A stretch of DNA of 64,000 nucleotides from an uncultured Ignavibacteriales bacterium (GCA_964611355.1 CAZSYD010000002.1:10409-74408); one strand, 5' to 3'. Shown: positions 3 through 43,059, counted from the first letter of the stretch. Made by a program: numbers and translations. The notes: generated by a model from the sequence alone, not told the origin.

Positions 3-797
3 AGCCTGCAGACAGTCATAGTTGCAGGTACGGGTGAGGTTCATGGCGACGTTATGGCCAGGAATATTCGCCGGGAGGGCGGCGGTCGGATACTGGGTCG
101 GCGGCAGGAGATTCCCGTCCCGGAAATCGGGCGCATTAAAATCCCGCGATATATCAGCATAACGCCCGGTCTCGTCTCGCTGCTTATAACCGGCTTTGTG
201 GTATTTCTTTGCGTTATCATAATTGCCATTATCCCGGATAATATGAAACGCATTGTCGGCAAGGTCCGGAATGAAATCATAAAGTCATTTTTCTGGGGTC
301 TCCTGGTCTGGTTCTCGATTTTGCCGGTGTTTGTTCTCCTGCTGATTACCATTATCGGAATACCGGTAGCGCTTTTGGCATACCCTTTGATTATCGTTGC
401 TGCGCTGGTGCTGGCTTATGCAGCCGTAGCGGTTGGTCTCGGTGAAAGCTTATGCCCTCTTTTCGGTTGGCAGGATAGGTCAATCTATATCAAAGGCATT
501 TGCGGAGTTATTGCTCTTGAGGCTTGCCGCAATCTCTGGATATTCTGTAGCTTTATCGGCGCCGATCTTCTTGGTGATTTCCTCCTTCCTATATTTATAG
601 TCGTCTATGGCCTGGCCATGACCATTGGCATCGGTGCGGTGGTCTCAACAAGGTTCGGAATAAGGCCGAAAAAGCCAAAAGAACCGGGCGTTGAACCGGC
701 TCAGCAGCTACCGCCTGCTCCGCTAGTGAGTCCTCCTCCTCCGCCTACTCCGCCCCCGCCGCCCTCGCCGCCGGATTCAAAAAATGCAACCGAATAG
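3..797 (+). CDS. 5'-truncated membrane protein with bactofilin-like (polymer-forming cytoskeletal) beta-helix repeats, several TM helices and a Pro-rich C-tail
   Basis: Frame is open from position 3 (SLQTVIVAGTGEVHGDVMARNIRREGGGRILG, bactofilin-like repeat), so the true start is upstream of the window; about 5 hydrophobic segments follow; ends PPPPPTPPPPPSPP. Confidence 0.7.
   Translation, partial: SLQTVIVAGTGEVHGDVMARNIRREGGGRILGRRQEIPVPEIGRIKIPRYISITPGLVSLLITGFVVFLCVIIIAIIPDNMKRIVGKVRNEIIKSFFWGLLVWFSILPVFVLLLITIIGIPVALLAYPLIIVAALVLAYAAVAVGLGESLCPLFGWQDRSIYIKGICGVIALEACRNLWIFCSFIGADLLGDFLLPIFIVVYGLAMTIGIGAVVSTRFGIRPKKPKEPGVEPAQQLPPAPLVSPPPPPTPPPPPSPPDSKNATE
732..773 (+). repeat. Low-complexity CCN codon run encoding poly-proline
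   Basis: cct cct cct ccg cct act ccg ccc ccg ccg ccc tcg ccg ccg read directly. Confidence 0.9.
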
Positions 798-2286: not shown

Positions 2287-2317
2287 GGCAGGTTGCGTTG
2301 CGGCCTGCCTTTTTTTT
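2287..2317 (+). terminator. Intrinsic terminator between rsbV and rsbW
   Basis: GGCAGGTTGC-GTT-GCGGCCTGCC stem (10 bp including two G-U) followed by 8 T. Confidence 0.75.
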
Positions 2318-2327
2318 GAGCGACGTT

Positions 2328-2750
2328 ATGAGCAATCCAACTTACCTGCCTGATGGCATTATCATTTCCTCATCCACTATTTATCTGGCTGATGTCAACC
2401 GTTACGTGGAGGAGAAGCTTTCTCAGGCGGGCATTGACGAATCTATTATAATCGACCTGGCCATATCCGTTTCCGAACTGGTCAACAATGCCATCGTTCA
2501 TGGTAACGGGGCCGATGCGTCAAAAGAGGTGGAGATTCGTTTTTCCATCACCGATACGGAGATAAAATTTTCCGTTCAGGATCAGGGCAAAGGATTCGAC
2601 TTGAACGAATTGCCGGATCCGATTGACGACGACAATCTGTTATGCGAGGTCGGGCGGGGATTGTTTATCGTCAGGAATTTTGTCGATGATGTGAACGTTT
2701 TACGCCTTCCCTCGGGCGGCACCCGGGTGGAGATCGTGAAAAACCTGTAG
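2328..2750 (+). CDS. rsbW: Anti-sigma factor / Ser kinase, HATPase_c_2 (RsbW family)
   Basis: SELVNNAIVHGN (N box), DQGKGFD (G1), GRGLFIV (G2); ATG 2328 preferred over TTG 2298, which lies inside the terminator. Confidence 0.9.
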   Translation: MSNPTYLPDGIIISSSTIYLADVNRYVEEKLSQAGIDESIIIDLAISVSELVNNAIVHGNGADASKEVEIRFSITDTEIKFSVQDQGKGFDLNELPDPIDDDNLLCEVGRGLFIVRNFVDDVNVLRLPSGGTRVEIVKNL

Positions 2751-2770
2751 TCCATAGCGGCCAATCCAAA

Positions 2771-5017: not shown

Positions 5018-5018
5018 T

Positions 5019-5585
5019 ATGAAAGATGAAGATCTTATTTACTTAATCAGCGGAAAAAAGGTTACCGGAATTGATGATTATAAGGGATACCGGTTCTGCC
5101 CCCGGTGTGGGGCGGAGTTGGTGATATCGGAAGTCGAAGATAAAACCCGACCGCATTGCCCGTCGTGCGGCTTTATATATTATCAGAATCCGACTCCCGC
5201 CGCCGGCGCGATGATCGTCAAGGACGATAAAATTCTGCTGGTTAAGCGTTCGATTGATCCGGGTAAAGGCGACTGGTGTATTCCGGCGGGGTTTTGCGAA
5301 TGGACCGAGCATCCCCAGCAGACCGCCGTGCGCGAAATAAGGGAAGAGACGGGACTCGACATCAGGATAGACGGTATGTTTGACATCTTTATGGGGATGG
5401 ATGATCCCCGGACGCATGCCGTTTTGATTTTATACCTTGCCCGGATTCTCGGTGGGGAGTTGACTCCCGGTGACGACGCCGCTGACGCCCGCTACTTTGA
5501 TTTCGATGAGATTCCATCCGATATCGCCTTTCAGGCGCATCGTGACGCCCTGGCTCTTTACCGAAAGCGGTACCTCAACCGGTAA
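5019..5585 (+). CDS. Zn-ribbon NUDIX hydrolase (ADP-ribose pyrophosphatase-like)
   Basis: CPRC...CPSC zinc ribbon and Nudix box GFCEWTEHPQQTAVREIREETGL. Confidence 0.9.
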   Translation: MKDEDLIYLISGKKVTGIDDYKGYRFCPRCGAELVISEVEDKTRPHCPSCGFIYYQNPTPAAGAMIVKDDKILLVKRSIDPGKGDWCIPAGFCEWTEHPQQTAVREIREETGLDIRIDGMFDIFMGMDDPRTHAVLILYLARILGGELTPGDDAADARYFDFDEIPSDIAFQAHRDALALYRKRYLNR

Positions 5586-5590
5586 GCGCT

Positions 5591-7060
5591 ATGCTGCTTC
5601 GAACCAGGATATTTCGCCAGCTTGTTGCCCTTGCCCTTATTCCTTCATGTATAATCGCACTGGCGGCGTGTTTCCTCCTATTTCGGGCGGTCGATCAAAC
5701 GAGCCGATGGGTGTCGGCTTCGTCTCCGGACAGGACCATAAATTCCCTGCGGATTGTTGAAACGCGGCTGCAGGAAACGGCGCAGGAAATCCTTGCGGCG
5801 ATTGACCCGGATGATTTGAATAGTACCGATTCGATTTTTGATTGGTTTATTGTTATAAGAAATGGCGAAATTATCATTTCAGAGGTTTATGTTGACCTGC
5901 CGCCCGGAATGGATTCCATCATAAGCCATAGCCTGAAAAAAGCCGGTCCGATACGAGAAATCACCGGCCAAAATATCGCTATCGGGTCATCGGTATTCAA
6001 AAACGGTCGCCTGATCGCGGGCGGGTTTGTTTTAGATCGTGAATATTTGAGTGGTTTTGAAGCGGCTTCGGCCAGCCTGAGTGAGAACCGGGGTTACGGA
6101 AATATTCTTCCGGCCTTTTTGCTTTTTATTGTTGTCGCCGGTGCGTCTGTCTTAATAGTCGTAATTATCGTTGCGTACTTTCTTTCGCGTCGTCTTTCGG
6201 CGTCGATTACCACCCCACTGGAAAAACTGGCGGGATTTTCGAATACCGTTGCCGAAGGAAAGAGACCCGATAGAATCGCCGTAACCGGCACCGATGAGGT
6301 TATCGCGCTGGCGGAAACCTTGAACCGTATGACGGACGATTTAGAACAAAGCCGTCGGCGTTTGATGGCGGCCGAACGGGTGGCGGCCTGGCAGGAGTTC
6401 GCCCGGCGGATGGCTCATGAACTGAAAAACCCGTTGACGCCGATTTCAGTTTCGCTTTACCGCATCAAAAAGAAGCTCGAAGATCGCGGCGATTACGATA
6501 AGTACGCAGAACCGATAGAGGCGATTACCGCTGAAGTGTCGCATCTTGAAAGGCTGGCAGGTGATTATGCGTCGCTGGCCAAACTGCCTGAGCCGAAATT
6601 CGCGGCGTTCGAATTCAACGGTTTGGTCCGCGAGGTTGTCGAGCTTTTTGCCGCCCAGCTTGAAGAATATCGCCTGGAAAATAAAATAGAAGGCGGCGCG
6701 GTTGAGATTAAAGGCGATCCGGATCGTTTGCGCGAGGTGATGGTTAATTTGCTCAAAAATGCCGTTGAGTTTGCTCCCGGCGGCGGCCGGATTGCAATTA
6801 CCGCCGGTCACGAGGAAAACCGGGTATTTTTCTCGGTAGCAAACGACAATAAGGATACCGGCGTGAGCGAGGATAATCTCCGGGCGGCGAAGATGCCGTA
6901 TTTTACCACCCGCGAAGGCGGAGGCGGTCTGGGTTTGGCGATTTCCGAGAAGATTATTATTGATCACGGTGGCAGTCTGACTTTACGTTTGAGAGATGGG
7001 ATGACGGAAGCAAGATTTGAAATTCCTGACGGACAATCGGCACGGGAAATCAGCCAATGA
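5591..7060 (+). CDS. HAMP sensor histidine kinase (NtrY-like)
   Basis: Two TMs, HAMP, H box AWQEFARRMAHELKNPLTPI (NtrY-like), N box NLLKNA, G2 GLGLAI. Confidence 0.88.
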   Translation: MLLRTRIFRQLVALALIPSCIIALAACFLLFRAVDQTSRWVSASSPDRTINSLRIVETRLQETAQEILAAIDPDDLNSTDSIFDWFIVIRNGEIIISEVYVDLPPGMDSIISHSLKKAGPIREITGQNIAIGSSVFKNGRLIAGGFVLDREYLSGFEAASASLSENRGYGNILPAFLLFIVVAGASVLIVVIIVAYFLSRRLSASITTPLEKLAGFSNTVAEGKRPDRIAVTGTDEVIALAETLNRMTDDLEQSRRRLMAAERVAAWQEFARRMAHELKNPLTPISVSLYRIKKKLEDRGDYDKYAEPIEAITAEVSHLERLAGDYASLAKLPEPKFAAFEFNGLVREVVELFAAQLEEYRLENKIEGGAVEIKGDPDRLREVMVNLLKNAVEFAPGGGRIAITAGHEENRVFFSVANDNKDTGVSEDNLRAAKMPYFTTREGGGGLGLAISEKIIIDHGGSLTLRLRDGMTEARFEIPDGQSAREISQ

Positions 7061-8391
7061 TACTTATAATCGACGATGAAAAATATATCCGTTCCTCGCT
7101 ATCGGGTCTTCTTGATGATGAAGGATATAAAACGGCCGCCGTGGAATCAGCCGAAAAGGGTGAAAAGCTTCTGCAATCGCAGGATGTCGAATTGATTCTA
7201 CTTGATATTCAGATGCCGGGCAAGGACGGTCTCACCTTTCTCGAAGATAATAAATCACGCTTGCAGGGTATTCCCGTAATCATAATATCCGGCCGGGGGG
7301 ATATCCCCACGGCGGTATCGGCCATTAAGCTTGGCGCTTACGATTATATCGAAAAGCCGTTAAATCCGGAACGCGTATTGTTGACGATAACGCAGGCTCT
7401 TCGATTGTCGCGATCGCTTGAAGCCGAAAAAAAACTGGTCGGCCATATTCTCGACCGTTATCGGATAATCGGTCGATCGCAGGCGGTCACCCGGTTGGAG
7501 CAAATGATTACCAAAGCGGCGGCGACCGATGCGACTGTCCTGATCACCGGCGAAAACGGTACCGGCAAGGAGCTGGTAGCCTGTCATATCCATTATCGGT
7601 CGAATCGCAGGGCTGAACCGATGGTGGTTGTCAATTGTCCCGCCATTGCCGAACAGTTGTTCGAATCGGAACTGTTCGGTTATGTCAAAGGCGCCTTTAC
7701 CGGCGCCGGTACGGATCGGACCGGCCGATTCGAAAAAGCTCACGGCGGAACGCTGTTTCTCGACGAGATTGGCGAATTGCCGCTCTCTCTGCAGCCGAAA
7801 CTCCTGAGGGTTCTGGAAACCGGCCAATTCGAGAAGGTTGGGTCGGATGAAACCATCTCCGTCGATTGCCGCCTGATTGCCGCCACCAATCGGAATCTGA
7901 AAGAGATGATCGAAAAATCCAAATTCCGAGAGGATTTGTTTTATCGCCTTAACGTGGTGACCATAAACGTTCCTCCGCTTGGTTCCCGCCCTGATGACAT
8001 TCCTTTGCTGGTCGATCATTTTTTGGGGCGGATGAACGTTGAAAACGAGTATGCTTTCTCATCGGAGGCAATCGGCGCGATGGCTTCTTATGATTGGCCG
8101 GGGAATATCCGCCAGTTGAAAAACTTCATCCAGCAGATCGTTTTTAACTGCGAACCTGGAACGGTTGGAGTCGATGATGTTTCGCGAGTTTATTATAATC
8201 AGCACGGTATTGAATCATATCCGGCAGGCCGGAGCGAAAGCGGGCTGGCCGCTGCCGTGCGCCAGTTTGAAACCGGCTATCTTTCGAGATTATATCAAAA
8301 ACATAATGGCAATATATCGGCCATGGCGCGGGAGTTGAATATGGACCGCGGTAATCTCTCGAAAAAGCTGAGGCAACTCAAGATCGTGTAG
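7057..8391 (+). CDS. Sigma54-dependent response regulator (NtrX/NtrC-like)
   Basis: REC (LLDIQMP), Walker A GENGTGKE, GAFTGA loop, FLDEIG, C-terminal HTH; overlaps the kinase stop (ATGA). Confidence 0.92.
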   Translation: MILIIDDEKYIRSSLSGLLDDEGYKTAAVESAEKGEKLLQSQDVELILLDIQMPGKDGLTFLEDNKSRLQGIPVIIISGRGDIPTAVSAIKLGAYDYIEKPLNPERVLLTITQALRLSRSLEAEKKLVGHILDRYRIIGRSQAVTRLEQMITKAAATDATVLITGENGTGKELVACHIHYRSNRRAEPMVVVNCPAIAEQLFESELFGYVKGAFTGAGTDRTGRFEKAHGGTLFLDEIGELPLSLQPKLLRVLETGQFEKVGSDETISVDCRLIAATNRNLKEMIEKSKFREDLFYRLNVVTINVPPLGSRPDDIPLLVDHFLGRMNVENEYAFSSEAIGAMASYDWPGNIRQLKNFIQQIVFNCEPGTVGVDDVSRVYYNQHGIESYPAGRSESGLAAAVRQFETGYLSRLYQKHNGNISAMARELNMDRGNLSKKLRQLKIV

Positions 8392-8486
8392 ATTTTACCT
8401 GCCCCTTCGGTCGCATGGTGTGTAATAATAACTCGTTTCCGTAACCGATATTTTTATAACGTCAAAAAATTCAGACAGTTATAATT

Positions 8487-8503
8487 TCGGCACGACGTTT
8501 GAT
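8487..8503 (+). promoter_or_regulatory. Possible sigma54 -24/-12 promoter (variant)
   Basis: TCGGCACGACGTTTGAT versus consensus YTGGCACGRNNNTTGCW; correct GG-N10 spacing but GA instead of GC at -12. Confidence 0.35.
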
Positions 8504-8532
8504 TGTCTTCCGGGCAAAAAGAGGAGGAGAAG

Positions 8533-10290
8533 ATGAAACCGGCCAGGCAAATATTTCCAATACTGGTTGCCTTGTTCATGTTTACAACCGTCAGTGGTGC
8601 GGAAGGTCAATATAAAAAGTATGAACCGGATAAAAAAGAAGACAGGATACTGGCGAAGCTTGAACTGGGCGAACGGCAGTGGACGATTACGTTTTATGAT
8701 GAAGTCGGCAAAGGTCATGAATCTACTTATTTGATTTCGCAGGTAAATCGCAGCGAAGGGGCCATAACGCTGGGCGACGAAGTTACAATGAATGACGATG
8801 GCATCAAAGGGCCCGGTTTTTCCATTGATTTCAAGGATATAGATGAAATAAGAATAGACGCTGACCCCGACCGGTATGATGCGGCGTTTTATTTCATGGC
8901 GGCGGATTCGGAGCGAAAAAGACCCCGCTTCCGCCAAAAACGAGACCTTATCTTTTTCTTGAATTCAATTACCGTGGAAGAAGATGAATTCGTTCGCGGT
9001 TCGGTAGTAAGCCTTTTCGGCGACATAGACGTGTACGGCGAAGTCAATCGTGATGTGGTAACCGTCTTTGGCGATATACATGCCGGTAAAGAAGCGGTGA
9101 TCCGCGGCGACGTGGTATCGGTCAACGGCTCGGTGAAGCTTGCCTCGGGATCGTCGGTTTACGGTGCGGTCAGGTCATCCAAAGGGGAATATTCAACTCG
9201 CCGGCACCGTGCCCGCCGGTGGAAAAAGCTGGAAAACGAAATCTGCATAGCCGGTGATCTTTATTATAATCGTGTGGACGGACTCGCCCTTCTGGCAGGT
9301 TTCAAATACGACGACCCCGATTCGATTCTCCCTTCGTTCGAGACCCTTGGCGGTTACGCCTTCTCATCCGATCGCTGGCGATATAAACTGGTTTTGGCGC
9401 AGACGGTACTTCGCGGGCCGATGCCGGTTCAGATAGGGGGAAAAGTCTATCGCCTTTTGAAATCAGATGATGATCGGATCATTGGTGATTGGGAAAACAC
9501 GATTTTTGCCCTCCTCGTTAACGAGGACTGGAAGGATTTCTACGAGGCCGAAGGGGGCTACGGATTTGTCCGCCTCGGCTTTTTGCGCTGGAATCGGCTG
9601 GAGGTCGGATACCTGTCGGAAACGCAGAACTGGCTTGATGCACATCCCCAATTATGGTCACTGTTCGGCGCCAAGCAATTCAGGGGAAATTTCTCTTCGG
9701 TTCCTTATGATACTCTGGCGGTCATGAGATCTGATTTTGATGACAAGCTCATCGCCAGCCTCAATGCCAAATTTACTTTTGATTCGCGCGACGACGAAAA
9801 ACATCCGCGCCGGGGATGGTACGGTTATGCCGCCTACGAATATTCGCCGGACAAGTGGAAAGGCGATTTTGACTTCGAACGTTTTGAAGTGATTCTGAAA
9901 CGGTACCAGCCGATTCAACGATATCTATCGATACGGTTGATGGCTGCCTATGGCCGGGCTAAAGGTAACAATGTTCCTCTTAACCGGCAGTTTTTCCTTG
10001 GAGGGCTGGGCACGCTTCACGGTTATCGACACAAAGAATTTCGGGGCAACGAATACATGCTGGTCAGCGGTGAGTACGGTTTCCGCATTCCGCGATCGGA
10101 TATCAGCCCTTTTTTGCGATATGACGGAGGCAAGATCGCGCCCAATCGCCTGTCCGGTGAAAACAGTTGGTGCGGTGCCATTAGTATCGGTATCTGCTTT
10201 GAAGAAAACCTGAAGCTGTTTATTTCCCGGCGTCTTGATCGCGAAGATGAAGATCCGATCTTCTACGCTCGTTTTTCGGCACCAATTTAG
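8533..10290 (+). CDS. Omp85/BamA-TamA-family outer membrane barrel with N-terminal bactofilin-like beta-helix, no POTRA evident
   Basis: GAGGAGG RBS before ATG 8533; signal peptide; GSVV/GDID/GEV/GDV repeats; C-terminal FFLGGLGTLHGY surface-antigen motif. Confidence 0.72.
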   Translation: MKPARQIFPILVALFMFTTVSGAEGQYKKYEPDKKEDRILAKLELGERQWTITFYDEVGKGHESTYLISQVNRSEGAITLGDEVTMNDDGIKGPGFSIDFKDIDEIRIDADPDRYDAAFYFMAADSERKRPRFRQKRDLIFFLNSITVEEDEFVRGSVVSLFGDIDVYGEVNRDVVTVFGDIHAGKEAVIRGDVVSVNGSVKLASGSSVYGAVRSSKGEYSTRRHRARRWKKLENEICIAGDLYYNRVDGLALLAGFKYDDPDSILPSFETLGGYAFSSDRWRYKLVLAQTVLRGPMPVQIGGKVYRLLKSDDDRIIGDWENTIFALLVNEDWKDFYEAEGGYGFVRLGFLRWNRLEVGYLSETQNWLDAHPQLWSLFGAKQFRGNFSSVPYDTLAVMRSDFDDKLIASLNAKFTFDSRDDEKHPRRGWYGYAAYEYSPDKWKGDFDFERFEVILKRYQPIQRYLSIRLMAAYGRAKGNNVPLNRQFFLGGLGTLHGYRHKEFRGNEYMLVSGEYGFRIPRSDISPFLRYDGGKIAPNRLSGENSWCGAISIGICFEENLKLFISRRLDREDEDPIFYARFSAPI

Positions 10291-10294
10291 CGAG

Positions 10295-10981
10295 ATGAAA
10301 ACGGGGGACAGGTTGCGAATCGGCGGGGTTAGACAGCTGTTGATCGGGCTGCTTGGTTTGAGTATTTTCTCCCCGGCGACGCCCGTTATAGCCAAACAGG
10401 TTGAGTTTGACTACGATATTTTTGTAGTTGAGGATACTCTTGTTTTCTGGCTCGATATAACTCCGGCATTAACCCAAAGGAAAATGGAAGATCTTCTTTC
10501 CGGCCTTGATATCCATATCGGGATAGATATAAGGCTGGAAAGGCCCCGCCGGTTTCTTCCGGCAAGGACGCTTGTCAAAAAGCGGGCCGCTCTTTTGATA
10601 TCTCACCCGCTAACCGAAGATGTCTACTATTTGAAAACAGCCAATCCTGATGTTATTAAACATAAATTCGAGAGCCAGCTTCAACTGTCCGATTTCCTGG
10701 CCGATTCCCTGGTTTTCAAAATAGCCCCTGTTTCGGATATTGGGGGTGACGGCCGTCCTCGCCTGCGGCTTAACATTACCTGTAAATCGTTTACATTCAA
10801 GACTATGCTCGGTCGACCGGGAGGGCGGGACAAAGATTTACTGCCGGCAGACAGCAGCAATACCGAATTTTTTGAGGATATTTTTTCTGTTTTTTTCAGA
10901 CTAATCGGCTTCGGGGAGGAATCTTATCGAGTAATTTCTCCGCTTTTCGATCCCGCCGATCTGCCCCGCGATAAACGGTAA
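10295..10981 (+). CDS. Exported protein, DUF4390-like
   Basis: Hydrophobic N-terminal signal; KMEDLLSGLDIHIGIDIRLER...PLTEDVY resembles DUF4390, which often accompanies ntrY/ntrX; ATG 10295 avoids overlap with the upstream gene. Confidence 0.45.
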   Translation: MKTGDRLRIGGVRQLLIGLLGLSIFSPATPVIAKQVEFDYDIFVVEDTLVFWLDITPALTQRKMEDLLSGLDIHIGIDIRLERPRRFLPARTLVKKRAALLISHPLTEDVYYLKTANPDVIKHKFESQLQLSDFLADSLVFKIAPVSDIGGDGRPRLRLNITCKSFTFKTMLGRPGGRDKDLLPADSSNTEFFEDIFSVFFRLIGFGEESYRVISPLFDPADLPRDKR

Positions 10982-11051: not shown

Positions 11052-12824
11052 ATGGCCAAGCCGACAGATCGGGAAATAGAAAAGGAAAAAGGGTTTATCT
11101 CAGAAAGCCCGGATTTCGATGACAATCAGTCAACCGACCGCGTCGAAGTTGGCAATGTTCTGGCCGAAATGGAAAAGACGCTCAACGATATCGTGAGCGA
11201 AAACCCTCGCATTTCCACTCAATCAGACAGCAGCTTGGTTCGACTCGATGATCTTAAGGCGATTCTGGAGATATCGCTGGCCATCAATTCCACTCCGGCG
11301 CTTGAAGAAATCCTGCAGGTAGTGATGCTGAAGGCCGTGGAACTGCTGTCGGCCGAGCGCGGTTTTATTATGCTCCTCGATAAAGAGGGTAATCTCCAGT
11401 TTAAATCGGCCCATAAAATCCGCCGCGAAGAAACCACCCAAGAGTATTTCAAAATTTCCTATTCCATTGCCAACCGGGTGGCCCAAACAGGCAAGTCGGT
11501 TTACACCTCCGATGCGCAGGAAGATAAGCGTTACGCAAGGCAGCAATCGGTTGTGGAGTTGAACCTGCGTTCGATCATGTGCGTGCCGCTAAAGATCAAA
11601 AAACGCGTAATCGGTGTTATTTATCTGGATAATTCATCGCAGGCCAAGCTGTTTCTGAAGTCCGACCTGTATCTTTTTGAGCATTTCGCCCAGCAGGCGG
11701 CCATGGCCATCCATAAGGCTCAATTATACAACAATCTCAACCGCCTGAAGAAGTACAACGAGGACATTATCGCTCAGTCACCGGTCGGCATCATTGTTAT
11801 TGACCCCGAATATAATCTGATAACCATCAATGAGGGCGGCCTGGCCATCTTCCAAGTAAATAGGTCGGATATTGATCTGAGGGAGGATTCGGAAAAGAGA
11901 AGCCGCTTTTTCGATTTGATTCCTCACGATGATGGGGCGGCGTGGCAAAAAATGATTGAGGTAGTCCTGACCGGAATCGAGAATTACCAGGAAGATCGTT
12001 ATTTCCACCATACCGGCTTTGAAGAAAAAGTCCTTTCAATAAAGATATCCTCGATAGACAGCCTGCCGGGGAATAAAACCGGGGCCATTCTGGTTATCGA
12101 GGACATAACCGAGAAGGTTGTTCTGGAAAAGTACGTGATCCTCTCGGAGAAAATGGTCGCCAAGGGCGAGATGGCCGCCTCAATCGGGCACGAGTTGAAT
12201 AATTATCTGACTATCATATCGACCAATGCCGAATTGATACAGTTAAATCTTGAGCGCAATAAAATGGACAAAGTCATCCAGAACAGCCGCCAGGTGATCG
12301 ACAATGTCGCCAGGGTAAAAAGATTTACCGACGGGTTGATGGACTACTCCAAGCTGGAAACTGAAATGGTCAGCTATGATGTTCGGCGTCTTGTGGAAAA
12401 CCTGGTGTTTTCAATCAAGTCACAGCCCAAGTTCAAAGAGGTGCGGATAAAGACGTCATATTCGGCTGATCTGCCCGAGATAAGCATCGACGTGGGTCAG
12501 ATACAGCAGGTTCTTCTAAACCTGCTTAATAATGCCGTTGATGCCATGGAGGATGCCGTTAAACCGGAGATAAAAATCTCCTGCCGGTTCGATAAAAAAA
12601 GAGACATGATGGTGCTCCGCGTAGCCGACAAAGGTCACGGCATGTCGGAGGAGGTGCAGAACAAGCTGTTTCAAGCTCATTTTACCACCAAACCGCATGG
12701 GCACGGGCTGGGACTGGTCAATTCGCATAAGATTATTGTAAGCCACGGTGGCGAGATTCAAGTCGAGTCAACAGAGGGTAAAGGGACTGCGTTCAGCATC
12801 TTCCTGCCCCGTAACCGGAAATAG
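11052..12824 (+). CDS. Cytoplasmic GAF-PAS histidine kinase
   Basis: GAF (LEISLAINST...SIMCVPL...GVIYLDN), PAS, H box IGHELNN, NLLNNA, DKGHG, GHGLGL; no TM. Confidence 0.9.
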   Translation: MAKPTDREIEKEKGFISESPDFDDNQSTDRVEVGNVLAEMEKTLNDIVSENPRISTQSDSSLVRLDDLKAILEISLAINSTPALEEILQVVMLKAVELLSAERGFIMLLDKEGNLQFKSAHKIRREETTQEYFKISYSIANRVAQTGKSVYTSDAQEDKRYARQQSVVELNLRSIMCVPLKIKKRVIGVIYLDNSSQAKLFLKSDLYLFEHFAQQAAMAIHKAQLYNNLNRLKKYNEDIIAQSPVGIIVIDPEYNLITINEGGLAIFQVNRSDIDLREDSEKRSRFFDLIPHDDGAAWQKMIEVVLTGIENYQEDRYFHHTGFEEKVLSIKISSIDSLPGNKTGAILVIEDITEKVVLEKYVILSEKMVAKGEMAASIGHELNNYLTIISTNAELIQLNLERNKMDKVIQNSRQVIDNVARVKRFTDGLMDYSKLETEMVSYDVRRLVENLVFSIKSQPKFKEVRIKTSYSADLPEISIDVGQIQQVLLNLLNNAVDAMEDAVKPEIKISCRFDKKRDMMVLRVADKGHGMSEEVQNKLFQAHFTTKPHGHGLGLVNSHKIIVSHGGEIQVESTEGKGTAFSIFLPRNRK

Positions 12825-12834
12825 ATTTGGCTAA

Positions 12835-15800
12835 GTGATGGGTACGGCGAGCGACGTTTTTCCAAAAGGGTACACCATCATAAAAAAAATCGGCGAGGGC
12901 GGCACGTCTGAAGTTTTTCTCGCCGGAGCAGACGGTCATTCACGGCCGGTGGCCGTTAAACTTTTTTCCGATTTTTCCGCCTTTGATCTGGTTGAACGCG
13001 AACTGGAGATTGCCGGCCGTATAAAGTTTCCCGGTATTGTTCGGGTTCATCGATCCGGCCGGACGACAGACGGCAGGTATTTCGTCCAGACTGAATATTG
13101 TCCCGGGCCGACATTGGATAATCTGGCCGGCAGGATATCAGAGGATAAACTTCTGTCGATTCTTTCTGCGGTTTCAGCTTCCTTAAATGTCCTGCACCAG
13201 GCCGGGTACACTCATAATGATATCAAGCCGGCCAATATATTTTCTCCGACGGGATTTGATAATGATGATTTCCCCGTAAATCGGCTCTATTATTTAAAGC
13301 TTGGCGATTTTTCTCTTGCCCGGCGCTGCGACCGTGATGACACGGCTTCGGTCACCGGCACCGTCGGATATATGTCCCCGGAGATGATTCTTAAGAAAAA
13401 GATTGCGCCCGCTTCGGATCTTTTTTCACTTGGCGTCACGGGCTATTACCTTGCTTGCGGGAAGCCGCCTTTTGCCGCCGATACCGACGATCCGTTGGAA
13501 ATCAACGCCCGGATTACCGAAGGAGAACGTCCTTGTTTGTGCGGACCGACAGCTTCATTCTCGGAAGATACGACGAAATTGATTAAATCACTTTTGGAGA
13601 TCGATCCAGACAGTCGGCCGTCTTCCGCATTTGAACTGCTGGAATTACTTGCCAAAGCAGGCTCACCCTATCCCTTCAGAAAAGCAATCAGGCCTCGGCA
13701 TCTTTTGTGGGGATGGCGAAAAATTGATTCGACAACCTTAACCGATCTTTTTGGTAATAGCAGTTTTTCGCCGGGTCATCTGGATTTTATTCAAAGAGTG
13801 ACTTCGTATGACCCTGCGCACGTGCGCATTCTGCTGGAATGCAATTTCGAGGCCGGAAATTTCGCTCGTCTGGATGGCTGCTGGGGATGGAAAAACGAGT
13901 CGGCCGATTCGATAGAATGGTCGCGCAGGCAAATGCGATTCAGTCTTCGCCATTTACGCGGAAGGCCGGTTTCTCTAAAACATCTGGCTCTGGCCCTGGC
14001 GATAGTCGGCAGCGGGGCTGAGGTTGAAAGGGTCGCCGATGTGCTTTCGGCTGATAAGAAACGTCTTCTCGATCAATGGTATTCAATTCCCGAAGGAAGA
14101 CAGGCGGCTCTTCTGTATTCGCTTGACTCTGTAATGGCTGCGTCCACGAGAAAAATACTCTCCCGCCGATTAATTCGGATATATGAAAAATCTGAAAGCC
14201 GCAGGGATTTGGTCGGGAAGCTTATGTTCAACGTGGGAAGATATGCTGACGCCGTTCAATACCTGACCGCGGCGGCCGAGGATTATATTGCCGGTAACCG
14301 GCACGATGATTCATTTCCTCTTTTGGATATTGCGTTAGACGCGGCCGGGAAACTTGATGATCCGGCTTTACGGGCTGATGTCCTTATACTGAAAGCTCGA
14401 TTGCTTAAGGACCTGGGCCGGTTGCAACCGGCTGAATATTACTATAATGAAGTTATAGGCCTGGCGCGGCAGAACGACTTGAAAGAAGTTTCGGCCAGAG
14501 CCCATAAAGATATCGGCGATATTTACAAGGCAAAATCCGATTACAACGCCGGAATTGAAGCTCTCAACCACGCCCTTGAATTATACCGTGACTTGAACGA
14601 CCAGTTGGAATTGTCGCATACGCTTAATAATCTCGGCAATATACACTGGGTGGCAGGCCAACTGGACCAGGCTCTTAGACATTACCATGAAGCGCTTAAT
14701 ATCCAGACCGAATTGAAATCAGACAGGGATATCGCTTCCAGTTTAAACAATATCGGTTCGATATGTATTATGCAGGGCCGATACAACGAAGGCGTCTCGT
14801 TTCTTGACCGGTCGCTGGTAATTAAGGAGGAACTGGGCGACAAAAGGGAACTGGCCCGCACCTGGAATAACCTGGGCGTGGCACAATTTTTGGCCGGTCA
14901 TATTGATCAGGCCATAAATGCCTATATCAGGTCTCTTGAGTATAATCGCGAAATTGAAGATCGGCATGAACAACTTCTAAATATCGAGAACCTGGCCGAG
15001 GTAATGATTCAGGCCGGACGCCTGAAGAAGGCGCTGGAGTATCTTAAAGAAGGCACGAAATTGGCTGAAGAGGAGGATGCCGATTTCCATAAGAGCGATC
15101 TAAGGCGGCTTACCGGTCAGCTCCTGAGGCGGATGGGATACTATGATGATGCTGAAGCGAAATTGAACCGGGCATTTGAGATCGCCAAGAAGACGGACAA
15201 TAAGGGACTCCGGCTGGTCTGCACCCAAAATATTGCGCGACTGTACTTCGCCATTGGCGAAACCTCAACGGCGAAGGAGTATATATTAATGGCCGTAAGG
15301 CTGGCCGAAAGCCTGGGTGATAAAAACGCCTTGTTTCACCTGTCCCTCATGCAATTCGAGATTTCCGGTGACGTAAAACTCCGTGAGAAGGCTGAAGAAT
15401 TCGCGAAGGATTTAAGTTCCAACCGAGAAACGGCTCTATTGAATCTTACCTTACTCGAGCAAAATAATAAACGGAACACGAACAAAGATTCTGATAAATA
15501 CCTGACAGGTGCGGGAAGGTTTTTCAATGATGGAATCGAAGATATCGACCGGGCGCGGTTTGGCCTGGCGGTTGGTAAATATCATTTCCTCATAAAAGAG
15601 GAGGAAAAGGCGGTTAGGCAACTTGAGAAATCGCTGAAACTGGCCGTCAATTCGGGTTTACTTCTGGAGCAGTGGCAAATATCGTCTCTTCTTTCCGAGA
15701 TAACTTTTGCGGGCGGCGATTTCGAAACCTCATTTGACTATGCTCAGCAAACCCTGGATGTTTTGAAAAAAATCTCGGCGAAAGTGAAAGATTCGCAAAG

Positions 15801-15909
15801 GCTGGGCAGGTTTTATAATGATGAAAGGATTATCGAACTTCTGGGCCGGGTCAAATCGCTCCAGTCGGTTCTGGGACATAAAAGAGGGGCTGCCGCAGAC
15901 AGCCCCTGA
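12835..15909 (+). CDS. Hanks-type Ser/Thr kinase fused to a long TPR array
   Basis: GEGGTSEV, VAVK, HNDIKPAN, DFS (for DFG), GTVGYMSPE; repeated LNNLG/LNNIG/WNNLG TPRs from about aa 500 onward. Confidence 0.88.
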   Translation: MMGTASDVFPKGYTIIKKIGEGGTSEVFLAGADGHSRPVAVKLFSDFSAFDLVERELEIAGRIKFPGIVRVHRSGRTTDGRYFVQTEYCPGPTLDNLAGRISEDKLLSILSAVSASLNVLHQAGYTHNDIKPANIFSPTGFDNDDFPVNRLYYLKLGDFSLARRCDRDDTASVTGTVGYMSPEMILKKKIAPASDLFSLGVTGYYLACGKPPFAADTDDPLEINARITEGERPCLCGPTASFSEDTTKLIKSLLEIDPDSRPSSAFELLELLAKAGSPYPFRKAIRPRHLLWGWRKIDSTTLTDLFGNSSFSPGHLDFIQRVTSYDPAHVRILLECNFEAGNFARLDGCWGWKNESADSIEWSRRQMRFSLRHLRGRPVSLKHLALALAIVGSGAEVERVADVLSADKKRLLDQWYSIPEGRQAALLYSLDSVMAASTRKILSRRLIRIYEKSESRRDLVGKLMFNVGRYADAVQYLTAAAEDYIAGNRHDDSFPLLDIALDAAGKLDDPALRADVLILKARLLKDLGRLQPAEYYYNEVIGLARQNDLKEVSARAHKDIGDIYKAKSDYNAGIEALNHALELYRDLNDQLELSHTLNNLGNIHWVAGQLDQALRHYHEALNIQTELKSDRDIASSLNNIGSICIMQGRYNEGVSFLDRSLVIKEELGDKRELARTWNNLGVAQFLAGHIDQAINAYIRSLEYNREIEDRHEQLLNIENLAEVMIQAGRLKKALEYLKEGTKLAEEEDADFHKSDLRRLTGQLLRRMGYYDDAEAKLNRAFEIAKKTDNKGLRLVCTQNIARLYFAIGETSTAKEYILMAVRLAESLGDKNALFHLSLMQFEISGDVKLREKAEEFAKDLSSNRETALLNLTLLEQNNKRNTNKDSDKYLTGAGRFFNDGIEDIDRARFGLAVGKYHFLIKEEEKAVRQLEKSLKLAVNSGLLLEQWQISSLLSEITFAGGDFETSFDYAQQTLDVLKKISAKVKDSQRLGRFYNDERIIELLGRVKSLQSVLGHKRGAAADSP
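15880..15907 (-). terminator. Intrinsic terminator for the minus-strand small-peptide transcript
   Basis: Minus strand AGGGGCTGTC-TGC-GGCAGCCCCT then CTTTT; overlaps the last codons of the kinase-TPR gene. Confidence 0.7.
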
Positions 15910-15954
15910 TTCGACCAACTGGATTACGATCGGGGTGTTACCCCTGTCCGTAGA

Positions 15955-16032
15955 TTATTGACCACCCAGACTGATATTAGCCGGGGCAACCTTCTCTTCC
16001 AGTTCTTCGATGAGCAGATCATAATCCCTCAT
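15955..16032 (-). CDS. Unannotated 25-aa peptide MRDYDLLIEELEEKVAPANISLGGQ; candidate RiPP-like precursor (leader ...EELEEKVAP, putative core ANISLGGQ)
   Basis: Translated by hand; AAGGAGG RBS (16046-16040) 7 nt before ATG; upstream sigma70 promoter; downstream terminator; adjacent RRE-M50 peptidase gene; below the ORF-track length cutoff. Confidence 0.8.
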   Translation of the reverse strand: MRDYDLLIEELEEKVAPANISLGGQ

Positions 16033-16062
16033 TCGAGTGCCTCCTTAGTTAGGGTCGAATAC

Positions 16063-16088
16063 TCCCGGTCATATGATGATGGCCGGGA
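16063..16088 (-). promoter_or_regulatory. 5'-UTR stem-loop of the small-peptide transcript
   Basis: TCCCGGTCAT-ATGATG-ATGGCCGGGA inverted repeat (10 bp, one imperfect pair). Confidence 0.55.
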
Positions 16089-16182
16089 ATTTCTATGTAT
16101 AAAGCTTTTACTTCGCCCGTTACTTGCCGGATCAGAGTGCCGGTTTTTAAGCAGTTGAATAAATTACTACTACTCAACCTGA

Positions 16183-16210
16183 ACTATAATCAAAAATCCT
16201 GATATGTCAA
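16183..16210 (-). promoter_or_regulatory. Sigma70-type promoter driving the small peptide
   Basis: Minus strand TTGACA-N16-TATAGT, about 150 nt upstream of the ATG. Confidence 0.7.
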
Positions 16211-16267
16211 GCGATTTCGGTATTTTATTGCGTTATTCAAATGCGATGATTAATAGAAGCCCAGGTT

Positions 16268-18592
16268 TTACCACCAGGACCAGAATTCCACTCGGATGTA
16301 AGATTTTATTCGTTCGGTCAGGATTGTAAAAAGCGATGCCCGGCCGCACGATATCTTGGCATAGCCGCTCATGCCGTCTTTGAGCTGCCTTTCTTTGTTG
16401 TCGATGGTGGCGTAAACTTCGAATCGGGCGCGGGAGTCGCCATAGTACTTCTCGTCGGCGGAATACGAAATATGGGTGACGCGGCCTCGGAAAAGATCAT
16501 TCGGATAAGTGCGGACTTTCAGTTTGATATCAGCTTCCGTTTCGATTAATTCGAGGTAATTGTCCGTAACCGGTATGGCCGTTTCCACCCGGGACATGTC
16601 GGCCACTTTAAATAAGAGGTTATTGCGATTAAGGGCAACCAGAATGCCGTCAATGGGGGATGTGATTGCCTGTGCCGCCTCCTGCGTCACCAAATAGTTG
16701 ATATTGGCTTTTTGCGCGGTGATTCTGGATTGGAGGATGGAAATTTCCTCGCGTTTGGGAGGCGACTTCAAAAGCCGGAGCCGCGCTTTGGCTTCCTTTA
16801 ATTTCGAACGGGCCAGATTCAGGCTCCACTGTGACTGTTCCAATTCCTGCTCGGAGATCAGCTTTTTCTCGAATAATGAGAGATTACGCTCTATCTCGCG
16901 TTGCAGTTGCTCGACATTAATAGCCGCGGCATTTACTTCTGACTGAGCTTTATCGGTTTCCTCCGGTTTGGGCGGCGACTGGGCCAGCGCCAGTTCGCCT
17001 TTGAGTCTTTCCAACTCCGACCGGGCCGCCGAAAGCGACGATGACACCTGGTTGGAAGCGATGGCCGTCAGCGTATCTCCCTTGCGAATAACGTCCCCTT
17101 CCCTGACCAGCGGCGTCAGCCGTAATACGGCAAGGTCTCCGGTGAAAAGCTGGATATGTTCGGTGTTGAACCGACGTTTATGGCCGCCTTCACGAAGGTT
17201 GAGTTCAAGAAGTCCCTGCTGCGACAGCAGGGTGATGGTGTATTCCGAGATCGGCCGAACAACGACGGCGCCGCCCGCCTGGCGGGGAAAAGGAATAATA
17301 AACAGCAGCAGAATCAGTGCGATAACAACGATTCCGCCGACAATCAGGTTGCGCGGTCTGGATATGAGCGCCTTCATCACTTCACGACTAATAAAAAACT
17401 TGATCGTTCGAGCAATCGGGTTCTTGAAAATAACGGTCAGAACCAGCAAAAACAAGATAAATCCCGCGCCGCCCAGATTGTCAACCAGGAAGCGGTAAAC
17501 AATGGCGGCGATATAAACAATCAACAGGATGCTGTATATACCGGCCAGGATGGTGTAGGAAATGAAAATGCGCCTTTCGCGGCGAGTGACACCGGGTTGT
17601 TGTGACGGCACGCCAATCAGTCTTTTTATCCTGTGTTTTATGAAACCGAAAGAGCGGCTGCGCAGGTTGGGGATATTCAGCATTTCGGAGAGGAGGTAGT
17701 ACCCGTCAAGCTTTATCAGTGGATTGACGTTGAAAAGCAGCATGATAAAACATACGTTGGCGATCAGCCAGAACACCTGGTTAATGGTAGTGCCGACAAC
17801 GGTCACACGCCACCCGAAAACGGCGGCGGCAAAGATTACCATCTGGAAAAACAAGCCGGCCCAGATAACGGCAAGCCGGGATGATTTACGCCTGAACAGC
17901 CAGGAGTCGGATAAGTTGGAATAAAAACAGAGCTGGAAATAAAGAAGCAGAAACCCCATTTCGTACACCTGGCCTCCGAAATACTTGCAGGTGAGAGCAT
18001 GGGCGAATTCATGAATAAAAATTATAAAGGCCAGAGATGCGATGATAACGATAATTGAGCCGACGTTAAACAACTCGCCGGGCGAAAAGCGGAAACCGTC
18101 GAAGTTTGCCGAATAGGTCAAAAAGCCGGCCAGGACAAAGATCATCATCAAGGTTACCGCCCAGGGCTGAAAGAGAAAACGGCTCGGCGGCAGCATTACA
18201 TTTAGCAAACGGTCGGGGTTGAATGCTTTGAGCTTGACAAACAGAATTCTTGAGAAGAGTGATTTTTTATGGCGACCTTTATACCGGCCCGATGAAATCT
18301 CGTATTCGGCTTTCGAGCCTTCGAAAAAGTAAAGCGAATTGACTTTGGCGGCGAATTTCTCGACCGCTTCGATCGAGATGTTTAGACTGAAATTTTCTCT
18401 AACATTTTTAGTGATGGCATTAAAATCGTTTTGGCCGTTGAACTGCCGGATAAGAAAATATTCCACCTCGCGGACTCTGAAATATCGTCGGGTGATGGGG
18501 TCTTTCAGGACGAAATATTTTTCCCCGTCGATGTCCTGCTCGGAAACGACCAGGTCTTCTCTGAGTTTTAGCGGCTTATCCCCGAAGGCCAT
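16268..18592 (-). CDS. PqqD/RRE-like domain, M50 (site-2) intramembrane zinc peptidase and HlyD-type membrane fusion protein in one polypeptide
   Basis: N-terminal LKLREDLVV...YFVLKDPITRRYFRV...EYFLIRQFNG (RRE-like); HEFAH and NVNPLIKLDG M50 motifs; biotinyl-lipoyl-like halves flanking a coiled-coil hairpin; ATG 18592 preferred over TTG 18694. Confidence 0.82.
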   Translation of the reverse strand: MAFGDKPLKLREDLVVSEQDIDGEKYFVLKDPITRRYFRVREVEYFLIRQFNGQNDFNAITKNVRENFSLNISIEAVEKFAAKVNSLYFFEGSKAEYEISSGRYKGRHKKSLFSRILFVKLKAFNPDRLLNVMLPPSRFLFQPWAVTLMMIFVLAGFLTYSANFDGFRFSPGELFNVGSIIVIIASLAFIIFIHEFAHALTCKYFGGQVYEMGFLLLYFQLCFYSNLSDSWLFRRKSSRLAVIWAGLFFQMVIFAAAVFGWRVTVVGTTINQVFWLIANVCFIMLLFNVNPLIKLDGYYLLSEMLNIPNLRSRSFGFIKHRIKRLIGVPSQQPGVTRRERRIFISYTILAGIYSILLIVYIAAIVYRFLVDNLGGAGFILFLLVLTVIFKNPIARTIKFFISREVMKALISRPRNLIVGGIVVIALILLLFIIPFPRQAGGAVVVRPISEYTITLLSQQGLLELNLREGGHKRRFNTEHIQLFTGDLAVLRLTPLVREGDVIRKGDTLTAIASNQVSSSLSAARSELERLKGELALAQSPPKPEETDKAQSEVNAAAINVEQLQREIERNLSLFEKKLISEQELEQSQWSLNLARSKLKEAKARLRLLKSPPKREEISILQSRITAQKANINYLVTQEAAQAITSPIDGILVALNRNNLLFKVADMSRVETAIPVTDNYLELIETEADIKLKVRTYPNDLFRGRVTHISYSADEKYYGDSRARFEVYATIDNKERQLKDGMSGYAKISCGRASLFTILTERIKSYIRVEFWSWW

Positions 18593-42900: not shown

Positions 42901-43059
42901 AACCGTCCAGATATCGCCCCGATAAGTAAAGGCGATAGTTTTGCCGTCAGGCGAGAGAGCCGGGTAGCGGGCGTACAGGATATTGTCGGATAAAGCCGCA
43001 TTCGTAATAAATGCCGAAAAAAGAATTATTATTCCGATGAGATAAACGTTTTTTCCCAA
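39913..43059 (-). CDS. Second tricorn-like S41 protease, exported
   Basis: ARYPALSPDG propeller repeats; YIHIPAM, DVRDNGGG, YSASNSE, GEPTAG; likely start TTG 43059 after GGAG, giving a clean signal peptide. Confidence 0.9.
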   Translation of the reverse strand: MGKNVYLIGIIILFSAFITNAALSDNILYARYPALSPDGKTIAFTYRGDIWTVPSEGGEALRLTVHEAEDIRPQFSPDGRMILFSSYRYNNYDIYVIPSGGGTSRQLTFHSGRDIGTGWFPQSDSILFTSSREGWRDIFKVSIDGGTPIRLTGYPYEQEYNGKISTDGRCLLFNNGSGLSRWWRRDLKASRNTDIFLQDRSQETFTSRRLTDFSGHDVWPILNEERREIYFVSCRGEWAQVWKIPIDGGETIQLTDFTGDGAQWLNSNPQGTMLVFEQGFHIWIMDPADGRPRRVDIQIQTDERKNLSEKKTFKGKVEWYSLSPDEKKIAAVIHGEIFVIPAKEPKEGIRVTFTSAREQTPVWGSDSKTLYYSSDRNGNYDIYSVDVTAREESRLTDSPENEVKPLVSPDGNYLVFYRGLDKIIRLDLGANKEVEWTGGMFFDLGVEPTIEYDWSPDSRWLAFTMAGPTYETDIYAVSLDGKSQNLSRFAEWNYRPRFSEDGKTVYFTSTFNDNYNTWKIDLIHKPPEFFEASFDSLFIEEPEEKEQSPKKDDKAEKEKPPITKIDFDRIEERLGKAYELSASSVYPALTPDGAKYLFISSVLEKSEIWSVNIKDEPELKQITKSGVDKKYLTITKDSKEVLYLEEGKIKRTEIETGNTTALSFTASLEIDVPKLNRQKFNESWQMLNTYFYDSAFHGADWAGARDKYEPVLDHVRTEPEFRNLIKEMIGELRASHLNIYPRPEEPNQNVQTGETGIMFDYRTLERDGRFLIADIVGKSTADLAGIKPGQYITAVNDKQLSPNDNIFKILAGTADKRLILAISDKPDKKGREFTLKPVTSITGEVYKDRVEKKRHLVDSLSGGRMAYIHIPAMSTKRLEAFKEELISIAEPKEALIIDVRDNGGGYIAVHLLGILVRTPYFLRNFRDSPVTSENKMRSKALEKPMALLINNYSASNSEIFAEGFRKLKLGKIIGEPTAGAVIGTSSYALIDGTRIRRPSWGAFTLEMEDTDIKPRYPDIFVENLPDDFINGRDPQLVRAVEELMKELK

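Follow-up and report, generated by a model that had tools for sequence, protein, structure and literature searches.

Positions 11052-18592 of a 64,000 nt stretch of DNA from an uncultured Ignavibacteriales bacterium (GCA_964611355.1 CAZSYD010000002.1:10409-74408; the whole stretch is referred to here as the window, and positions are counted from its first letter) contain four genes arranged tail-to-tail. The two plus-strand genes encode a histidine kinase and a protein that combines a Ser/Thr kinase with tetratricopeptide repeats (the kinase-TPR protein). The two minus-strand genes encode a 25-residue precursor peptide and a 774 aa membrane protein in which an RRE domain, an M50 site-2 protease and an HlyD-type adaptor are fused. 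It is very probable that the minus-strand pair is a module that recognizes, cuts and exports the precursor, releasing a short C-terminal peptide that is probably unmodified. We also lean, with some reserve, towards a functional coupling of this module to the kinase operon, based on a conserved junction, a change of peptide core upon loss of the kinase-TPR gene and interlocked terminators; this coupling would be at least physical and transcriptional. The most likely role of the product, which we propose with moderate confidence, would be that of a short secreted signal peptide, autocrine or acting from cell to cell, that is tied to the kinase network. An earlier note on this DNA had described sensor genes on the plus strand meeting peptide and exporter genes on the minus strand, and all of these parts were found where it had placed them. 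The best homologues of the locus are in Zixibacteria metagenome-assembled genomes (MAGs), and a diderm cell would fit the Omp85-family and type VI secretion genes that the window contains.

The peptide gene and the protease-adaptor gene

The peptide gene (MRDYDLLIEELEEKVAPANISLGGQ, 25 codons, 15955-16032, minus strand) was identified as an open reading frame (ORF) with a ribosome-binding site, located approximately 235 nt downstream of the protease-adaptor stop codon and 46 nt from the kinase-TPR stop codon. Its Shine-Dalgarno sequence, AAGGAGG (16040-16046, minus strand), is 7 nt upstream of the ATG. The 25 aa precursor consists of a 17-residue leader with an ELE…AP motif, MRDYDLLIEELEEKVAP, followed by the predicted core ANISLGGQ. 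By anchoring on the protease-adaptor gene we gathered 84 loci, which together with the window make 85 sources. A motif and hidden Markov model search of these found an equivalent peptide ORF with a ribosome-binding site in the same place in 64 of the 85, and the leader family consensus [IV]ExLEx[KR][IV]AP is likewise present in 64; the sequence AGGAGG(T) is kept upstream of the ORF in nearly all loci, and both ORF and ribosome-binding site are present in the protease-kinase gap of four orthologous loci. Among 57 single-copy loci, the first, second and third codon positions have nucleotide entropies of 0.81, 0.61 and 1.66 bits, respectively, as expected of a gene that is translated and under purifying selection. 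The peptide ORF is a conserved coding gene. Two other small ORFs, one of 42 aa (16049-16177, minus strand) and one of 66 aa (15958-16158, plus strand), were considered as alternatives and rejected, as conservation in the orthologous gaps does not extend to either. Within the peptide, conservation is greatest in the leader: when the window is compared with a relative that is 91% identical in DNA, all 17 leader residues are the same and the core differs at two of eight positions (ANISLGGQ versus ANFSMGGQ). No Pfam or NCBIfam model matches the peptide. Its longer relatives are annotated as "hypothetical protein" in public collections and the window's own peptide is not called, so that these precursors, labelled hypothetical or missed by public annotation, would make up an unannotated family of small secreted peptides.

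The protease-adaptor gene (16268-18592, minus strand) was assigned from NCBIfam, Pfam, motifs and an AlphaFold2 model. The ORF reaches a TTG at 18694 (808 aa); because the orthologues are 773-774 aa in length, the ATG at 18592 was taken as the start, in agreement with the end coordinate in the earlier note. Three approximate sub-regions, all on the minus strand, were distinguished: an RRE domain (18290-18592), a region of approximately seven membrane helices with HEFAH and NxNPLIKLDGYY (17285-18178) and a periplasmic adaptor with an alpha-hairpin (16271-17284). The RRE domain corresponds to residues ~1-100 of the 774 aa form, and the PqqD Pfam model matches it in 12 of 22 family members (best E-value: 8.8e-7). 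In an AlphaFold2 model of residues 1-106 (pLDDT 80.5), three strands are followed by three helices, and the best PDB fold matches of this model are TbiB1 and lasso B1 with bound leader (probability 1.0, target TM 0.67-0.71), followed by the RRE domains of CteB and SkfB. The HEFAH motif (residues 228-232) and NVNPLIKLDGYY (residues 322-333) are invariant in the 22 sequences and lie within approximately seven hydrophobic segments; Peptidase_M50 and HlyD each match all 22 family members. Judged from these residues, the site-2 protease domain is intact and is predicted to be active. The C-terminal 340 residues form an adaptor of the HlyD/MacA type (barrel-sandwich, beta-barrel and alpha-hairpin), with a match to MacA and a precomputed HH_YBHG hairpin match. 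The best NCBIfam match of the protein is the daptide_HExxH intramembrane metalloprotease model (NF041824; E-value: 3e-56), at 191.2 bits, which is below the curated cut-off of 300 bits.

This match led to the closest known parallel. A paper on daptides describes precursors that carry ELExMEAP and that are recognized by an RRE fused N-terminally to an intramembrane site-2 protease, while a later daptide paper reports cleavage directly after ELExxxxx, whatever the P1 and P1' residues. Like the daptide systems (MpaA/MpaP, DapA/DapP), the locus pairs a short precursor that has an ELE…AP leader (here …IE-ELEEKVAP-ANISLGGQ) with an intramembrane HExxH protease to which an RRE is fused N-terminally. 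It differs from them in several respects. First, daptides have an invariant C-terminal Thr that is converted into an amine, whereas the window peptide ends in Gln and none of the cores from 47 kinase-linked sources ends in Thr. Second, the window core is not aliphatic-rich. Third, the window protease has a C-terminal HlyD-type adaptor, the host belongs to a diderm candidate phylum and the pair is linked to kinases. Among the Pfam-annotated ORFs (≥150-200 aa) on both sides of the locus in the window, and in the orthologous loci, none was found for a DUF-RRE protein, an alcohol-dehydrogenase-like decarboxylase, an aminotransferase or a methyltransferase; there is no DapB, DapC or DapD gene nearby. 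By sequence, the leader/protease pair is homologous in kind to the daptide pair but the locus is not a daptide cluster. The earlier note had missed this relation. With it, the daptide-type pair of leader and RRE-protease would be far more widespread than the daptide class, extending to Zixibacteria, Acidobacteriota, Verrucomicrobiota, Gemmatimonadota and others.

Because the leader sequence ELEEKVAP parallels the daptide motif that is cut after ELExxxxx, cleavage is predicted to occur after Ala-Pro and to yield the 8-mer ANISLGGQ. As no tailoring enzyme was detected nearby, the product is predicted to be unmodified. In the mechanism that we propose, the 25-residue precursor would be made from its own sigma-70-type promoter, its acidic leader (…IEELEEKVAP) would be bound by the cytoplasmic RRE of the 774 aa membrane protein, and the M50 site-2 protease domain would cut after Ala-Pro. 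The unmodified octapeptide ANISLGGQ would then pass into the periplasm, and the fused HlyD-type adaptor would probably pass it to an outer-membrane channel. Both the cleavage site and the export step are what we infer. The suggestion in the earlier note of a precursor peptide beside a processing and export gene is borne out to the extent that the ORF is conserved and coding and that a dedicated protein is predicted for recognition, cleavage and export.

Other known systems resemble the module in part. Like the epipeptide protease YydH/EpeP/LiaK, the window protein has an M50 membrane protease of a kind thought to cleave and export a small peptide (NCBIfam match with an E-value of 3e-10, weak at 40 bits against a cut-off of 225); unlike the epipeptide system, the locus has neither a radical-SAM epimerase nor an ABC transporter, and the leader is different. 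The adaptor shares the barrel-sandwich and alpha-hairpin architecture of MacA, EmrA and HlyD, but is fused to a protease rather than partnering a separate ABC, MFS or RND pump. In diderms the protease of this module is joined to a periplasmic adaptor, a fusion that would suit the two-membrane envelope. Literature searches (leader motif, M50+HlyD+RiPP, PqqD+HlyD and daptide+HlyD, a RiPP being a peptide that is made on the ribosome and modified after translation) returned no description of this architecture. A double-glycine leader with PCAT export was considered and rejected, as the GG is one residue from the C-terminus in most peptides and there is no C39 peptidase or ABC gene. The TMcin system was also compared, using the published description, and was found not to be related.

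The junction with the kinase operon

Thirteen of the 85 sources are too short to be informative about the kinase genes, a kinase-less call requiring at least 3.5 kb of downstream sequence, which leaves 72. A kinase-TPR gene is convergent with the protease gene at a distance of 314-1012 nt in 47 of these, including the window, and is missing from the other 25. In the kinase-linked sources the kinase-TPR gene is accompanied, in order, by genes for a GAF-PAS kinase, a DUF4390-like protein, an Omp85-family protein and, usually, a sigma-54 regulator. Protease identity to the window among the 47 falls from 71% to 33%, and each of the 47 contains exactly one peptide gene. The opposite flank of the protease gene is variable, with at least eight families and 13 singletons among the 38 loci that have an upstream ORF. 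Full-length kinase-TPR orthologues were found only in records of the Zixibacteria/FCB group. When the kinase was used as the anchor, the protease gene was convergent beside it in three of three look-ups, in a 90%-identical relative and in the metagenome orthologue L085. A kinase-anchored metagenome scan was rejected as an independent test of adjacency, since the degenerate patterns hit generic kinases and L085 and L086 were the only orthologues obtained. As adjacency is conserved from both anchors, the two halves are not independent within this lineage. By the refuting condition set in the earlier note, independent occurrence in other genomes, its reading is not refuted: the halves are adjacent in 47 sources and in the kinase-anchored look-ups.

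The type of peptide core follows the kinase-TPR gene. Of the 47 kinase-linked loci, 42 have a core of the form x(x)ΦSΦG[GD][QERN], to which a W/F/G-rich tail is added in some. In contrast, three genomes (L018, L029 and L031) in which the histidine kinase block is kept and the kinase-TPR gene is missing carry four to seven tandem precursor genes with hexapeptide cores of the form S[RK][WY]Gxx. In a neighbour-joining tree of the proteases, kinase-less Zixibacteria loci fall inside the kinase-bearing clade, indicating at least three events (L018/L029/L031; L032/L042/L043; L027). The second of these groups has neither a peptide gene nor a kinase block nearby. Peptide core type thus tracks the presence of kinase-TPR, and loss of kinase-TPR is accompanied by a changed, multiplied or absent peptide, with the exception of L027.

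Other precursors were observed in the course of this comparison. The tandem precursor genes (L018:12473-13569, L029:12459-13499 and L031:12447-14156) have their own ribosome-binding sites and a common leader, lie between the protease-adaptor and histidine kinase genes, and encode cores that include SRWGTD, SKYGVD and SRYGAE. Eight further loci (L071, L075, L076, L077, L079, L080, L082 and L083), from MAGs labelled Acidobacteriota, Verrucomicrobiota, Gemmatimonadota and Limnocylindrales, combine the same leader with G/N/P/S-rich cores of 25-50 residues that carry the recurring motifs …GNEVSNGSKPQP… and GYEGQPGNQG repeats, often in several precursor genes. No ELE…AP precursor could be detected within 10 kb of the Zixibacteria paralogues or orthologues of the protease-adaptor gene in L032, L042, L043 and several of L047-L068, and some of these are followed by a gene for a secreted TPR protein of 391 aa.

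The arrangement of predicted transcription signals provides a second link between the two gene pairs. A sigma-70-like promoter (TTGACA-16-TATAGT, 11/12) is predicted at 16183-16210 on the minus strand, giving the peptide gene a 5' untranslated region (UTR) of approximately 140 nt; the pattern TTGAC[AT]-16..18-TAnnnT is present in 21 of 46 kinase-linked loci, among them the window and the nine loci closest to it (L001-L009). A terminator-like hairpin of the peptide gene (15884-15908, minus strand), with a 10-bp GC-rich stem and a T-rich minus-strand tail, overlaps the stop codon and last codons of the kinase-TPR gene. This is the hairpin that the earlier note had regarded as shared; it is real and is best described as the peptide gene's own. 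Within the 110 nt that follow the peptide stop codon, 40 of 43 loci have a stem (at least 9 bp) and a T tail, compared with 54 of 1720 shuffles, and in 33 of the 40 this hairpin overlaps the kinase ORF. A second hairpin, in the peptide 5' UTR (16063-16088), has its T-rich tail on the plus strand and is a candidate terminator of the kinase operon. When folded singly, each of the 12 UTRs from the wider clade of the window forms such a hairpin (z from -1.0 to -3.7), and the strict terminator form is found in 11 of 46 loci as against 18 of 1840 shuffles. RNAalifold gave no consensus structure for the 12 UTRs, the hairpins being out of register in the MAFFT alignment, and Rfam identified no known RNA family in the intergenic region. 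A separate conserved element, …CACACGGATGTG…, with a small hairpin near the 5' end, was seen in the peptide 5' UTR of several close relatives (L002, L005, L006, L001, L008 and L009) and is not evident in the window.

If these predictions hold, the kinase operon may terminate only after antisense passage through the whole peptide ORF. With the peptide terminator inside kinase codons and the kinase terminator beyond the peptide ORF, the convergent transcripts should therefore overlap in antisense, and this predicted overlap would be a direct regulatory link that requires no contact between protein and peptide. Interlocked terminators would also explain, in purely structural terms, the resistance of this junction to breakage. 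Convergent, overlapping transcription from closely spaced face-to-face promoters occurs at prgQ/prgX of pCF10. The window locus is similar to it in that a peptide gene and a putative receptor gene face each other with a predicted antisense overlap of their transcripts; it is dissimilar in that hairpins are the sole basis for predicting the overlap, the 3' ends of the two genes are what meets and the components are not homologous.

The same junction could be explained by frozen synteny, in which a self-contained secretion module happens to lie beside an unrelated operon, its product being antimicrobial, surface-active or other, and the embedded terminator holds the two together. We regard this explanation as possible though doubtful. 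A number of observations argue for it or weigh against functional coupling. The peptide/protease module occurs alone, with no common neighbours, in Acidobacteriota, Verrucomicrobiota and Gemmatimonadota MAGs, and as a two-gene module without conserved neighbours in MAGs labelled Aminicenantes and Limnocylindrales. The protease gene is also apart from the kinase block in L032/L042/L043 and in L027; the latter, as the sole exception to the pattern of core types, has kept a GGQ-type peptide with no kinase block within 10 kb. The adjacency counts are not independent events, because all such sources appear to belong to one phylum-level lineage, and, wherever the hairpin extends into the kinase ORF, a break in the junction would harm one gene or the other. 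Convergent orientation rules out co-transcription of the peptide and kinase genes. Searches upstream of the peptide, protease, Omp85, histidine kinase and Ser/Thr kinase genes detected no sigma-54 promoter; nothing therefore indicates that the module is driven by the sigma-54 regulator of the block. Finally, the characterized relatives (daptides and epipeptides) are antimicrobial or membrane-active. Three observations speak against frozen synteny: the junction has been kept over a range of protease identity from 71% to 33%, in which the opposite flank was rearranged many times; kinase-TPR loss coincides with both a change of core type and gene multiplication; and an unmodified Gly/Ser-rich octapeptide without an immunity gene is an unlikely antimicrobial.

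The sensor kinases and possible reception of the peptide

In one large Zixibacteria lineage, the module would be tied to an operon that ends in a GAF-PAS histidine kinase and a Hanks kinase-TPR protein. In the window, the former (GAF-PAS-HisKA-HATPase by domain match, 590 aa) is encoded at 11052-12824 and the latter (Pkinase+TPR, 1024 aa), whose gene starts 10 nt after, at 12835-15909, both on the plus strand. The kinase-TPR protein is made up of a cytoplasmic Hanks-type Ser/Thr kinase domain (~12835-13690), a helical middle domain of approximately 200 residues (13648-14244) and an LGN/KLC-like TPR superhelix (~14215-15909, from a PDB sequence search). The catalytic residues G20/G22/G23, K42, E56, D129, N134, D158-F159 and P182-E183 do not vary among 18 orthologues. 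The kinase is of the non-RD type (HND), has DFS and, judged from its sequence, is catalytically intact and predicted to be active. The PDB sequence search placed the TPR region nearest to LGN/Pins/GPSM2, KLC and consensus TPRs, which are superhelices that bind extended peptides, and also retrieved OGT and AfsR; it returned no RRNPP protein at an E-value of ≤1e-3. The middle domain, modelled from fragments of database proteins (pLDDT 93), consists of helices and a beta-hairpin, has no PDB fold match (best E-value: 1) and may be an undescribed domain. A split version of the kinase-plus-TPR combination was observed elsewhere in the window, where a second Ser/Thr kinase gene (581 aa) is followed by genes for a CsgG-like lipoprotein and a TPR protein (43294-47511, plus strand).

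Neither kinase has a hydrophobic segment and both are cytoplasmic. Because both lack membrane segments, direct sensing of an outside peptide in the manner of AgrC is excluded. The GAF-PAS histidine kinase gene accompanies the kinase-TPR gene in every case. In favour of classical two-component quorum sensing, in which the histidine kinase would sense an extracellular peptide as AgrC or ComD do, a histidine kinase gene stays adjacent to the module where the kinase-TPR gene is missing (L018, L029 and L031). This reading is contradicted by the topology of the 590 aa kinase, which has no membrane segment or extracytoplasmic domain, and no cognate regulator is adjacent, the sigma-54 regulator being paired with a HAMP kinase. 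We consider it extremely improbable.

In the Gram-positive RRNPP pheromone systems (Rap-Phr, PrgX/cCF10 and Rgg/SHP), the M50 protease Eep is a processing enzyme, and in Rap proteins the TPR controls an enzyme of the phosphorelay rather than a DNA-binding domain. The locus is comparable in that an M50-family membrane protease is predicted to release a linear peptide, small and unmodified, from the C-terminal end of a short precursor, and in that a cytoplasmic TPR protein (here TPR_12 and other TPR families) is encoded beside the peptide gene. There are also clear differences. The TPR of the locus has no sequence relation to RRNPP receptors and its effector is a Hanks kinase instead of a helix-turn-helix or Rap-type output; the precursor has an RRE-type leader instead of a Sec or lipoprotein signal; and the cell is diderm, with an HlyD adaptor and no Opp importer seen in the annotated window ORFs. 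In our scheme the TPR could bind re-imported peptide, or the precursor, and so tune kinase output. That the TPR-kinase is the peptide receptor is a tentative idea that we consider unlikely. The complete diderm pheromone circuit, in which an unmodified octapeptide, made and exported by means of a daptide-type leader and the RRE-protease-adaptor fusion, would act through a cytoplasmic Hanks kinase-TPR receptor (Rap/RRNPP-like but unrelated) on a histidine kinase/sigma-54 network, with an antisense switch like that of prgQ/prgX, is rather doubtful. The TPR-peptide contact, the antisense overlap and the signalling role are all what we infer.

Exploratory Mantel tests were carried out with 27 loci; the seven comparisons were corrected neither for multiple testing nor for phylogeny, and the test is lenient with related sequences. 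Core distance correlates with TPR distance (r=0.26, p=0.004), also as a partial correlation on histidine kinase distance (r=0.25, p=0.017, uncorrected for seven tests). The protease membrane domain gives an equal signal (r=0.24, p=0.002; partial r=0.21, p=0.03), and the partial correlations of the core with the RRE, the adaptor and the kinase middle domain are not significant.

Several of these results speak against a signal peptide that is perceived by the kinase network. First, core-TPR covariation is suggestive at most, being weak and no stronger than that with the protease membrane domain. The earlier note had proposed covariation of this kind as a check, and what was found (r=0.26, p=0.004) is a weak and uncorrected signal. 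Second, the core is highly conserved across deep lineages, where IGLSQGGQ recurs, and there is for this reason no sign of a pherotype radiation. Third, the large ORFs annotated in the 64-kb window and the conserved neighbours include neither an inner-membrane pump nor a TolC-like outer-membrane factor. Fourth, the cytoplasmic location of both kinases means that an RRNPP-like reading needs a route of re-import; none was seen in the window, whose annotated large ORFs include no oligopeptide importer.

Two further explanations were considered. In the first, the TPR senses the uncleaved precursor or the freed leader inside the cell and so reports the state of production or export, and the exported core has a separate signalling role or none. 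This would place sensor and precursor in the same compartment, would fit the failure to find an importer in the window and would account for the leader being the most conserved part of the peptide. It is improbable in our view, since the covariation of leader and TPR is gone once histidine kinase distance is used as a proxy for phylogeny (partial r=0.02), and since it is the core type and not the leader that shifts when the kinase-TPR gene is absent. In the second, the kinase is a tailoring enzyme: the TPR would hold the precursor while the kinase phosphorylates the near-invariant core Ser (xxΦSΦGGQ) before cleavage and export, yielding a phosphopeptide, similar to the action of kinase domains in class III/IV lanthipeptide synthetases. 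The core Ser in 42 of the 47 kinase-linked loci and a catalytically intact kinase that is cytoplasmic like the precursor are compatible with this, as are weak NCBIfam matches of the kinase-TPR protein to the kinase domains of LanL/LanKC and to the RiPP TPR protein HaaT. These matches are, however, far below the curated cut-offs and reflect generic kinase and TPR similarity. In addition, no lyase or cyclase domain is present and the middle domain is without a known fold; the gene is translationally coupled to the histidine kinase gene in a regulatory operon on the opposite strand; and kinase-less lineages still process Ser-containing cores. A tailoring role is likewise improbable.

A secreted signal peptide tied to the kinase network remains the role that we prefer. 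The quorum-sensing-like circuit with a kinase readout described in the earlier note survives in part: the precursor and exporter, the kept adjacency and the tracking of kinase-TPR by core type agree with it, whereas the cytoplasmic location of both kinases, which excludes an AgrC-like reading, and the weak covariation do not. Signalling by ribosomal peptides has been described in detail for Firmicutes but hardly at all for diderms, with nothing on cell-cell communication in uncultured Zixibacteria. The locus offers a concrete candidate that can be tested, with a defined 8-residue peptide, a single protein for which binding, cleavage and export of that peptide are predicted, and a kinase-TPR protein that is soluble and could be purified.

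Other features of the window

The kinase operon is preceded by a conserved co-directional block (2771-10981, plus strand). It comprises genes for a GAF-SpoIIE/PP2C phosphatase (2771-5017), a NUDIX protein (5019-5585), a HAMP histidine kinase (5591-7060), the sigma-54 response regulator that is its partner (7057-8391), an Omp85-family protein (8503-10290) and a DUF4390-like protein (10235-10981). An RsbW/SpoIIAB-like HATPase_c_2 kinase gene is immediately upstream of the phosphatase gene (2298-5017 for the two, plus strand), and this pairing points to a partner-switching module with which the conserved block begins. An anti-phage defence system was considered and rejected: PADLOC gave generic kinase-domain matches only, and none for the protease-adaptor, Omp85 or DUF4390-like proteins.

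Type VI secretion genes are located at 54884-63956 on the minus strand and include TssG (54884-55786), VgrG-like (57862-59634), TssC (60140-61570) and ClpV-like AAA+ (62056-63956) genes; at least four ORFs that neighbour them have no Pfam match. A histidine kinase gene with FG-GAP repeats is followed by a gene for a second sigma-54 response regulator at 31577-35309 (plus strand). Between these regions, two convergent genes (36487-39777, plus strand, and 39913-43203, minus strand) each encode a 1096 aa tricorn-like protease with a PD40 propeller, tricorn C1/PDZ and S41 domains.

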